IMG/VR virus record: IMGVR_UViG_2690316267_000001
Source: a virus
Taxonomy: Monodnaviria > Loebvirae > Hofneiviricota > Faserviricetes > Tubulavirales > Inoviridae
Direction: 5' to 3' (one strand)
Length of the DNA: 8,586 bases
Every line of letters starts with the position of its first letter. The first letter of the stretch is position 1. The notes under the pieces were generated by a model. It was not told the DNA's origin. It saw only the letters and a program-made list of their open reading frames with translations, and made no database searches. Positions 6,884-8,586 of the stretch are shown here, in pieces. The translations under genes and the position numbers were made by a program.

Positions 6884-7330
6884 ATGGGCAACAATGAGCA
6901 TGAAGTTATGGCGGACAAACAGAGAGCAGAACGTATAAAAAAGGCAATTCTGGAACACTCGACTTATGAAGAACTGGCCGAGAAGACTGGCATTAGCGTA
7001 AGTACGCTGGTCAGGATAGCGTCCGGCAAAACTGAACCTAAATTCAGCGATATAATTCAGATAGCTAAAATTACTGGCGCAGATTTGAACACCTTAGCTT
7101 ATGGCTATGCTCTTGATGTTAAAGAAGAAGCTACTGAGCGAAAGCTGATAACTTCTGCGGACGGATATACTGATGAAGAAACCACGAACGCGCATAATTT
7201 CATCGTGTGGAACATCAGAACACTGGAGAAGCAAGATATTCTGGCACTTGCAAGGCAAGTTTCTGCATTAAGTTCATATACTTACAGTACAAAAATGTTT
7301 ATGAAAAAAGCATTGTCAGGCGAAGAGTAA
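6884..7330 (+). CDS. XRE-family helix-turn-helix transcriptional regulator (148 aa), candidate phage repressor
   Basis: N-terminal HTH-like segment ..STYEELAEKTGISVSTLVRIASGKTEP..; GGAG 8 nt upstream of the ATG; divergent from gII as in repressor-carrying inoviruses; C-terminal ~70 aa unassigned. Confidence 0.75.
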   Translation: MGNNEHEVMADKQRAERIKKAILEHSTYEELAEKTGISVSTLVRIASGKTEPKFSDIIQIAKITGADLNTLAYGYALDVKEEATERKLITSADGYTDEETTNAHNFIVWNIRTLEKQDILALARQVSALSSYTYSTKMFMKKALSGEE

Positions 7331-7358
7331 AAAGCTAGCGGTCTCAGGAATGAGACTA

Positions 7359-7393
7359 ACGTGCAGTATTACCAACACTGCACGTTCTTTATT
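7359..7393 (+). terminator. rho-independent terminator after the HTH regulator gene
   Basis: Perfect 9-bp stem ACGTGCAGT / ACTGCACGT (7359-7367 with 7377-7385), 9-nt loop, followed by TCTTTATT; a second small hairpin GTCTCA-GGAA-TGAGAC at 7341-7356. Confidence 0.6.
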
Positions 7394-7428
7394 GCGCGAA
7401 TTTTGAACAGTGAAAAAGGATCAAAAGG

Positions 7429-7851
7429 ATGAGTAGAAATAACGAAACAAGCGGCGTTGAACTGGTTGTCGTGGGCATATTTGCTTTCTGTCTGGCAGTT
7501 GTTGCCTGGCTAATGAAAACTTTCGATGTTGAATGGCAAACAGCTCTGGAAACTGCGCCTAGCCTGATAGTCTGGCTGCTTGTTGTTGGGGCGGGGATCT
7601 TTTTCGGGATCAAAATGGAAACAGGTCTTGTTCGCTGGGGTGCTCCACTGGCGATTGCCCTTCTGATTCCGGTATTCAAACCAATCCTTAAGGAAGCTGC
7701 CGGAGTACGTGAAACGGGTGGATTGGTTTTCGATGATATGGTTTCGTGGTATGGAACTGGCTGGGGAATGTCGTTGATGTTTTTCGGAATTCTTATCATC
7801 GGATACGGGCTGCTTTATTGGTGGCACAGAAGAAATTCATATCACTGGTAA
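7429..7851 (+). CDS. small integral membrane protein (140 aa, about 4 predicted TM helices), function unknown
   Basis: Four hydrophobic stretches (LVVVGIFAFCLAVVAWL, LIVWLLVVGAGIFFGI, APLAIALLIPVF, MSLMFFGILIIGYGLLYWW) separated by charged loops; AAGGA 7 nt upstream of the ATG. The overlapping minus-strand ORFs are Pro/Ser/Thr-rich, as expected for antisense of a membrane-protein gene. Confidence 0.65.
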   Translation: MSRNNETSGVELVVVGIFAFCLAVVAWLMKTFDVEWQTALETAPSLIVWLLVVGAGIFFGIKMETGLVRWGAPLAIALLIPVFKPILKEAAGVRETGGLVFDDMVSWYGTGWGMSLMFFGILIIGYGLLYWWHRRNSYHW

Positions 7852-7855
7852 TTTC

Positions 7856-7877
7856 AAACCGTGGGAAACCACGGTTT
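7856..7877 (+). terminator. stem-loop after the membrane-protein gene (9-bp stem AAACCGTGG / CCACGGTTT, GAAA loop), weak terminator candidate
   Basis: Direct inspection; begins 5 nt after the stop codon; no strong U-tract beyond the stem. Confidence 0.35.
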
Positions 7878-7937
7878 AATAAGAGGAAACTGAACCCTAT
7901 CAGTTCCACAATGGAAAAATTGGGTAGTGACTCCAAC

Positions 7938-8441
7938 TTACTGATAGTGTTTTATGTTCAGATAATGCCCGATGACCTTGTCATGCAGCTCCACCGATTT
8001 TGAGAACGACAGCGACTTCCGTCCCAGCCTTGCCAGATGTTGTCTCAGATTCAGATTATGTCGCTCAATGCGCTGAGTGTAACGCTTGCTGATAACGTGC
8101 AGCTTTCCCTTCAGGCGTGATTCATACAGCGGCCAGCCATCCGTCATCCATACCACGACCTCAAAGGCCGACAGCAGGCTCAGAAGACGCTCCAGTGTGG
8201 CCAGAGTGCGTTCACCGAAAACGTGCGCCACAACTGTCCTCCGTATCCTGTCATACGCGTAAAACAGCCAGCGCTGACGTGATTTAGCACCGACGTAGCC
8301 CCACTGTTCGTCCATTTCCGCGCAGACGATGACGTCACTGCCCGGCTGTATGCGCGAGGTTACCGACTGCGGCCTGAGTTTTTTAAATGGCGGAAAATCG
8401 TGTTGAGGCCAACGCCCATAATGCGGGCGGTTGCCCGGCAT
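7938..8441 (-). CDS. insB: IS1 InsB (transposase catalytic part; expressed as InsAB' fusion by -1 frameshift)
   Basis: Translation [59 protein letters not shown].. matches IS1 InsB from memory. Confidence 0.9.
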
Positions 8442-8586
8442 CCAACGCCATTCATGGCCATATCAATGATTTTCTGGTGCGTACCGGGTTGAGAAGCGGT
8501 GTAAGTGAACTGCAGTTGCCATGTTTTACGGCAGTGAGAGCAGAGATAGCGCTGATGTCCGGCAGTGCTTTTGCCGTTACGCACCA
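8360..8586 (-). CDS. insA: IS1 InsA (partial at window edge; N-terminus continues at 49..1 if the sequence is circular)
   Basis: Translation ..[73 protein letters not shown] matches IS1 InsA; the track's initial M is an internal GTG (Val). Confidence 0.9.

Follow-up and report, generated by a model that had tools for sequence, protein, structure and literature searches.

A probable lysogeny/immunity cassette opposite gII in a filamentous phage resembling UPphi: an allelic HTH regulator and a conserved membrane protein

What is the role of a pair of genes that a filamentous phage carries on the strand opposite to its replication-initiator gene, gII? We addressed this question in an 8586-nucleotide stretch of inovirus DNA (IMG/VR record IMGVR_UViG_2690316267_000001), hereafter the window, whose minus strand carries a complete filamentous-phage gene set as judged from its list of open reading frames (ORFs) and from Pfam matches. 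Two ORFs on the plus strand, opposite to gII and with an insertion sequence, IS1, downstream of both, encode a helix-turn-helix (HTH) regulator and a membrane protein. Our analysis indicates that this two-gene cassette is probably the lysogeny/immunity module of a temperate filamentous phage of the UPphi/YpfPhi type, which integrates at dif, and that it consists of a putative repressor and a membrane protein probably made in the lysogen.

Both genes are genuine and under strong purifying selection. By the method of Nei and Gojobori, the ratio of nonsynonymous to synonymous substitution rates (dN/dS) was 0.017 for the HTH gene compared to its counterpart in pMTY14759 (27 synonymous versus 2 nonsynonymous differences) and 0.06–0.08 for the membrane gene compared to three relatives, one of which was a 73%-identical copy from Yersinia enterocolitica. 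The HTH protein belongs to the Pfam family HTH_3 (PF01381; 38.2 bits, cut-off 23, residues 27–68), matched Phage_CI_repr through its N-terminal HTH only (22.1 bits, cut-off 22), and aligned over residues 1–148 with PHROG 3557, annotated as 'transcriptional regulator' (7e-74). The membrane protein aligned with PHROG 4174 (1e-84) over residues 1–140 of a 140-position profile, a family annotated as of 'unknown function'. An initial annotation of the window, made from the sequence alone, had described two opposite-strand coding genes, one for an XRE-type HTH protein and one for a protein with about four transmembrane segments, and the family match, the four predicted helices, and the low dN/dS values bear out that description and its coding signal. 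It had also stated that neither protein was recognized and that the pair was the best candidate in the window for an undescribed accessory system. The profile searches place both proteins in PHROG families, both have RefSeq entries, the full cassette is present in 96 of 5426 complete Escherichia coli genomes, and the UPphi group has been published (PMC7307601), so calling the cassette undescribed goes too far: it is ordinary in kind, being catalogued, widespread, and part of a published phage group, and it is uncharacterized. About 65 more of these genomes carry the membrane gene with another regulator; 163 of the 5426 have a match, and prophages of this dif-integrating kind are present in about 2–3% of the genomes.

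The evidence on the function of the HTH protein comes from the divergent control region that separates its gene from gII (Table 1). The best sigma-70-like promoter in this region matches 9 of 12 positions and faces gII; it was the sole site called in 6600–8000 and had the top score in an independent second scan. An inverted repeat (6782–6808 and 6812–6838) also lies within the region. The motif GTCA-N4-TGAGCA has three copies in the window, all of them in the control region, compared to an expected number of 0.03, and none of 200 shuffled sequences reached three. At least four interchangeable alleles occupy the regulator slot among 23 IMG/VR inovirus contigs and several genomes, including the 148-residue HTH protein of the window (HTH148), HTH proteins at 36–40% identity, and a 60–71-residue protein of PHROG 2503. 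Intergenic sequence and repeat motif are specific to each allele: all 15 fetched loci that carry HTH148 had GTCA-N4-TGAGCA, and none of the loci with a different allele did. Because HTH148 always travels with three sites that bracket the only good gII-facing promoter, it is very likely, on these sequence grounds, to be a phage repressor; confinement of the motif, overlap with the promoter, and covariation with the allele are the sequence features expected of a repressor with cognate operators.

A homolog 46% identical to the HTH protein occupies the same slot, divergent from gII, in Vibrio cyclitrophicus inoviruses. Other searches with the HTH protein added little. A Peptidase_S24 self-cleavage domain was absent among the 13 Pfam families listed at E values up to 1, a sequence search of the PDB gave nothing beyond a marginal TrpR-like match, and PADLOC returned generic HTH matches only (E = 1.7e-5 or weaker). 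An Rfam search of 6600–7950 gave nothing meaningful. We considered co-regulation by LexA and rejected it: the single CTG-N10-CAG match, at 6831, is not kept in close relatives with the same regulator and is thus attributed to chance. Homologs of 122–141 residues that are ~60% identical over both domains occur on MOBP/MPF_T conjugative plasmids of E. coli and Salmonella, where they adjoin a resolvase gene (for example, locus L005, pCFSA664-2, 4001–4369, and similar plasmids of ~41 kb), so that the regulator family extends beyond inoviruses.

The window phage appears to be a UPphi-type inovirus, of a group that integrates at dif. Window positions 105–7922 are 100% identical to a prophage of E. 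coli SCPM-O-B-12142 (NZ_CP144928.1), which lies as a tandem repeat adjoining hipBA in the dif region, and ECONIH2, a named UPphi host (PMC7307601), was match H7 of our genome search with the window. UPphi viruses have been described as having Lineavirus-like morphogenesis genes, integrating at dif in tandem, and having gII and gV in common with YpfPhi, and the reverse-orientation ORFs adjoining dif in these viruses were reported as of 'unknown function' (Shapiro and Putonti 2020; PMC7307601). The tandem prophage at dif and hipBA, the covariation of allele and operators, and the Vibrio homolog in the same place all support the earlier suggestion of a temperate-inovirus repressor module divergent from the replication gene.

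The cassette is inherited within a larger exchangeable block. The window and pMTY14759 have 5323–7850 in common at 90.6% identity, a block that comprises gV, gII, the control region, the HTH gene, the hairpins, and the membrane gene and that ends exactly at the membrane gene stop codon; the morphogenesis module of pMTY14759 is unrelated to that of the window. In E. coli genomes, a homology break falls near window position 7341, right after the HTH stop codon. The membrane gene was present in all 23 IMG/VR inovirus loci found, always after the regulator, and is constant behind every regulator allele and with every downstream cargo. This modular inheritance suggests that immunity types are exchanged as cassettes. 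pMTY14759 itself (locus L004; NZ_CP128883.1; 9565 bp, circular, extrachromosomal) was deposited as an untypable E. coli plasmid; it is the replicative form of a filamentous phage, with the gV–gII–HTH–membrane block on a different backbone.

The cassette had been presented as lying inside an Ff-type genome, with the suggestion to check whether it is an insertion, and comparison with I2-2 (a Lineavirus; locus L043, NC_001332) reversed this view. The gII protein of I2-2 is 57% identical to that of the window. Antisense at I2-2 positions 2805–2918, we found a frameshifted relic of a small regulator of the PHROG 2503 type (50% identity over 38 amino acids to the 71-residue Yersinia allele, Y71; E = 2.5e-9), followed by a twin hairpin homologous to that of the window (I2-2 2716–2666 and window 7337–7387; 84.6% identity, E = 1.5e-8). 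I2-2 differs from the window phage in its broken regulator frame and in lacking a membrane gene, a dif site, and a U-tract behind the hairpin. The relic and hairpin thus indicate that non-integrating phages lost the module, rather than that the window phage gained it, and the absence of the membrane gene from non-integrating I2-2 indicates that the membrane protein goes with the temperate lifestyle. These results lend support to the published proposal of an integrating ancestor for I2-2 and IKe (PMC7307601) and suggest that the 'gene-free' intergenic region of classical I2-2 is a decayed version of this module.

The second gene of the cassette encodes a protein with four hydrophobic segments. 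An AlphaFold model computed with 36 homologs consisted of four long helices (predicted local distance difference test score 84.3; predicted template-modeling score 0.71), the positive-inside rule predicts a topology with both termini inside the cell, and the most conserved stretch (PILKEAAG...WYGTGWG) is predicted to lie in or at the periplasmic face of the membrane. P73, P85, Y108, and G125 are nearly invariant. The family is narrow: an exhaustive profile search of 1.84 billion representatives returned only 41 proteins, of 125–140 residues. A Shine–Dalgarno sequence, AAGGA, lies 8 nucleotides before the ATG, and two promoter scans found no sigma-70-like promoter upstream of the gene, in agreement with the initial annotation. 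No informative sequence or fold relative was found. Pfam gave no hit, with only scattered sub-threshold matches for all 36 family members, NCBIfam and PADLOC gave no match, and a collection of phage GenBank records contained no protein match to the membrane protein and no DNA match to the cassette. Homology to RexB of phage lambda was rejected, as hhalign of the 36-sequence profile returned a probability of 0.07% and an E value of 0.7.

Relatives with 29–42% identity to the membrane protein occupy the same position in other inoviruses. More remote relatives outside inoviruses are also found among insertion sequences and alone in a Mixta chromosome. In locus L034 (6125–12314), a relative is the third gene of a three-gene unknown cluster immediately upstream of the operon of a cyclic-oligonucleotide-based antiphage signaling system (CBASS) with CD-NTase, E1/E2, JAB, and SAVED genes, and in locus L052 (5924–7414) a relative lies inside a conjugative type IV secretion cluster, where it adjoins a VirB11-like ATPase. 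Behind the membrane gene, an alternative cargo consists of a zinc-ribbon protein (ECs_2282 family, 91 residues) and a 159-residue protein (PHROG 6723), as in L002 (UM146, 10771–11525) and L037 (7397–8145); this pair stays together even where the membrane protein is only 40% identical.

How might such a module operate? The repressor would bind the three GTCA-N4-TGAGCA operators upstream of, within, and downstream of the gII promoter, so as to silence replication and the virion genes in the lysogen and make immunity allele-specific, by a mode of repression that may resemble that of RstR on ig-2 of CTXphi. Because the membrane gene has no promoter of its own, it would be cotranscribed with the repressor gene, and its product would probably be supplied in the lysogen by low-level read-through from the repressor transcript. 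The membrane protein would then act at the envelope of the carrier cell by blocking further filamentous-phage DNA or other incoming DNA. We propose this role in superinfection or entry exclusion tentatively, from context: the protein is linked to lysogeny, is predicted to lie in the inner membrane, is dispensable in I2-2, and has relatives on other mobile elements. The effector role in exclusion or immunity suggested by the initial annotation is thus plausible. A somewhat more doubtful extension is that PHROG 4174 constitutes an unrecognized class of inner-membrane entry-exclusion proteins in enterobacterial temperate inoviruses (UPphi, YpfPhi/CUS-1), and occasionally in other mobile elements, that acts at a step shared across attachment proteins, such as TolQRA-dependent entry. 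Resident YpfPhi gives partial protection against superinfection (PMC4266046); the conserved membrane protein is an obvious candidate for this unexplained effect, which such an exclusion class, if real, would explain in YpfPhi lysogens. Described phage groups with this replication/immunity block are known from uropathogenic and K1 strains of E. coli and from Yersinia pestis; for their control, the repressor allele, three operators, and target promoter described here give a concrete circuit that can be tested.

Several observations weigh against this scheme. No convincing promoter for the HTH gene was identified (a weak extended −10 sequence, TGtTAAGAT at 6863–6871, overlaps the ribosome-binding site and was not relied on), and the HTH protein scored 19.8 bits, over its HTH part only, against the RstR family model (NCBIfam NF041951), for which the cut-off is 80. 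If the hairpins between the two genes terminate transcription efficiently, then lysogens would express the membrane gene hardly at all. In addition, a ~96%-identical membrane protein accompanies two unrelated gIII attachment proteins, a pairing that speaks for a later, common step rather than for exclusion specific to a receptor.

Known systems offer parallels of different kinds. RS2 of CTXphi (rstR–ig-2–rstA) resembles the window locus in having a small XRE-type repressor divergent from a Phage_CRI-family replication gene, in the joint variation of repressor and intergenic operators between heteroimmune phages with conserved flanks, in integration at dif as a tandem array, and in a conserved cis region, ig-1, downstream of the repressor gene. 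It differs in that no membrane gene follows rstR, that the window HTH protein is longer, carrying ~70 additional residues at its C terminus, and shows no family-level sequence relationship to RstR, and that LexA co-regulation is not indicated in the window phage. As the HTH protein falls far under the NCBIfam cut-off for RstR, we compare the two by position and mechanism only. UPphi (UPphi901), YpfPhi, and CUS-1 appear to belong to the same phage group as the window phage and have the same locus, tandem dif integration, and gII and gV common to both backbones; the papers that describe them did not identify the allelic regulators, the operators, the family of four-helix membrane proteins, or the I2-2 relic (PMC7307601, PMC4266046). 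One of these papers labels YPO2273 an RstR-like regulator, an assignment made without experiment (PMC4266046). In the cI–rexA–rexB operon of phage lambda, a repressor gene is likewise followed on the same strand by a gene for a four-helix inner-membrane protein of ~140 residues (RexB, 144 residues), which is expressed in lysogens and acts in exclusion. The resemblance is one of layout only, for there is no RexB homology and no RexA partner, and lambda is a different kind of phage. Pf4 of Pseudomonas is a temperate inovirus with a repressor, Pf4r, and a small inner-membrane protein, PfsE, that blocks superinfection (PMC8764522, PMC8402870). PfsE acts on the type IV pilus, however, the gene positions differ, and no sequence relationship was detected. 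It is also much smaller than the window membrane protein.

The context of the membrane gene accommodates other functions as well. Its product could be a lysogenic-conversion or fitness factor that alters the host envelope, and thereby stress tolerance, colonization, or virulence, instead of an exclusion protein. The gene lies in an accessory region next to cargo that varies, a part of the genome in which inoviruses frequently have genes that modify the host (PMC7307601, PMC4266046), CUS-1 and YpfPhi confer modest fitness gains in vivo (PMC4266046), and chromosomes of Mixta, as well as a locus beside CBASS, have copies that stand alone. We nevertheless consider this role unlikely, as the cargo varies (hyp370, the zinc-ribbon protein with its 159-residue partner, and others) whereas the membrane gene is constant and part of the replication/regulation block, and the protein has no similarity to a known envelope-stress or virulence protein. 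The protein could also serve the phage's own cycle by anchoring or regulating replication, Xer-mediated integration, or extrusion: the gene travels in a single block together with gV–gII, the control region, and the hairpins and is nearly universal in the phage lineage, and a gene designated h3, which would count here if it is the membrane gene, was reported in 221 of 229 cases (PMC7307601). This role is less probable still, however, because I2-2, with homologous gII, gV, and hairpin, completes replication and assembly in the absence of a membrane gene, making the protein dispensable for replication and assembly, and because the protein pairs with two unrelated morphogenesis modules and has relatives outside inoviruses.

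The gene order would also suit a toxin–antitoxin or abortive-infection pair, with an XRE antitoxin and a membrane-damaging toxin, since an XRE HTH gene upstream of a gene for a small membrane protein is a common toxin–antitoxin layout and one remote relative of the membrane protein adjoins CBASS. The membrane gene is paired with unrelated regulators, however, namely the 60–71-residue protein, which is not of the HTH_3 family, and HTH alleles at 36–40% identity, and a specific protein–protein antidote is therefore unlikely. The membrane protein also has no PADLOC match and no conserved charged residues within its helices, and we regard this possibility as the least probable of those considered here. 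Exclusion continues to be our preferred, if tentative, account of the membrane protein, within a module that is probably one of lysogeny and immunity.

The region between the two genes raises a separate question, as the initial annotation had placed a strong intrinsic terminator there and proposed regulated read-through into the membrane gene. A hairpin structure is present: the twin-hairpin region folds at −28.2 kcal/mol (z = −2.5). Its strength as a terminator is doubtful, because the second stem is invariant even in the absence of a U-tract and the hairpin type tracks the gII type. Hairpin 1 has undergone one compensatory event involving two pairs (GTCTCA/TGAGAC to GTACCA/TGGTAC, in UM146 and L014), as expected of a purely structural element. 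Hairpin 2 has a 10-bp stem and a 9-nucleotide loop followed by CUUUAUU, a weak U-tract, and was not called by a consensus terminator scan. All 10 of its pairs are invariant in sequence across ten distinct sequences, I2-2 included, its loop keeps GTAAT on the gene-sense strand, and I2-2 and L036 do not retain the T-rich tail. In each of 37 loci the hairpin type matched the gII type, irrespective of the regulator allele, and in L009 and L010, which have an extra inserted gene, the hairpin remains beside the regulator and not beside the membrane gene. Given the invariant second stem and the linkage to gII type, an origin-like, sequence-specific cis site within the replication module accounts for this pattern no less well than a terminator does.

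We give a close to even chance to the possibility that the intergenic element is mainly the plus-strand origin, with a hairpin recognized and nicked by the gII protein and possibly a terminator role alongside. Sequence invariance of hairpin 2 extends to I2-2 despite a gII protein that is only 57% identical, at the same time as hairpin 1 tolerates compensatory change, and the gene-sense loop and 3′ arm of hairpin 2, GGTAATACTGCAC, resemble the M13 nick region, TTTAATAGTGGAC, at 9 of 13 positions in our own comparison. An origin here would match ig-1 of CTXphi, just downstream of rstR, where the CTXphi origin is reportedly located. There are also observations on the other side. At 7381–7391, the 11-mer CACGTTCTTTA matches the M13 gene II nick-site core (M13 5771–5781) at every position, but it lies on the strand antisense to gII and was rejected as a nick site in that orientation. 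Homologous recombination between conserved flanks could swap cassettes and so account for the linkage between hairpin and gII types. Four gII_W loci also have copies of the other hairpin type downstream of the membrane gene, and the stem of hairpin 2 is indeed followed by a T-rich tail in the window. The third hairpin of the cassette region, AAACCGTGG-GAAA-CCACGGTTT, lies between the regulator and membrane genes in L028 and L037, which have the other gII type; the hairpins of this operon seem to be movable punctuation. The four-helix membrane protein and the possible origin hairpin are the parts of the locus that merit experiments.

Table 1. Positions of the cassette, its control elements, and other features in the window.
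Feature	Coordinates	Strand	Remarks
XRE-family HTH regulator, putative phage repressor	6884..7330	+	148 amino acids; PHROG 3557; RefSeq WP_001608238.1
Conserved inner-membrane protein with four predicted transmembrane helices	7429..7851	+	140 amino acids; PHROG 4174; RefSeq WP_000089310.1
Divergent control region between gII and HTH gene	6713..6883		Regulator-allele-specific; own sequence and own repeat motif per allele
Best sigma-70-like promoter, TTGACT-17-TACATT	6774..6802	-	Faces gII
Candidate operator O1, GTCAGAACTGAGCA	6824..6837	+	22 bp upstream of −35 hexamer of gII promoter
Candidate operator O2, GTCAGATCTGAGCA	6783..6796	-	Fills 17-nucleotide spacer of gII promoter
Candidate operator O3, GTCATTTGTGAGCA	6746..6759	+	Just downstream of predicted gII transcription start
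Hairpin 1, GTCTCA-GGAA-TGAGAC	7341..7356	+	RNA fold; compensatory change
Hairpin 2, AACGTGCAGT-ATTACCAAC-ACTGCACGTT with CTTTATT tail	7358..7393	+	Stem-loop 7358-7386; terminator-like; candidate plus-strand origin hairpin
Hairpin AAACCGTGG-GAAA-CCACGGTTT	7856..7877	+	Read from sequence; right after membrane gene stop; no T-tract
gII replication initiator	5660..6712	-	Pfam Phage_CRI, 2e-72; same exchangeable block as cassette; putative repression target
gV	5648-5331	-	ORF list/Pfam
Coat genes		-	ORF list/Pfam
gI/Zot	3243-2149	-	ORF list/Pfam
gIV secretin	2234-876	-	ORF list/Pfam
IS1	7923..8586 and remainder 1-104	-	Pfam DDE_Tnp_IS1; homology with NZ_CP144928.1 ends at 7922 and restarts at 105

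The two pieces of IS1 at the window ends add up to exactly 768 bp, one complete element, and the window is thus circularly permuted. In NZ_CP144928.1, the membrane gene is followed by a gene for a 369-residue hypothetical protein (PHROG 17621) and the tandem junction. The IS1 of the window stands in place of 1259 bp of that sequence, so that the window copy, unlike UPphi, has lost the cargo gene and the attachment junction. No target-site duplication is present at IS1, the flanks being GAAAAATTG and GGATGGCAG. A search found no dif-like site left in the window, where IS1 occupies the corresponding segment, and the window copy is therefore probably unable to integrate by Xer recombination. Downstream of gIV, window positions 105–797 are common to the otherwise unrelated pMTY14759 backbone, at 97% and 79% identity, and include an 82-residue ORF (477–725, minus strand) that RefSeq lists as hypothetical. 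This segment may correspond to h1/h2 of the UPphi paper; in the circular phage, it joins the replication/immunity block by way of the cargo and attachment segment.

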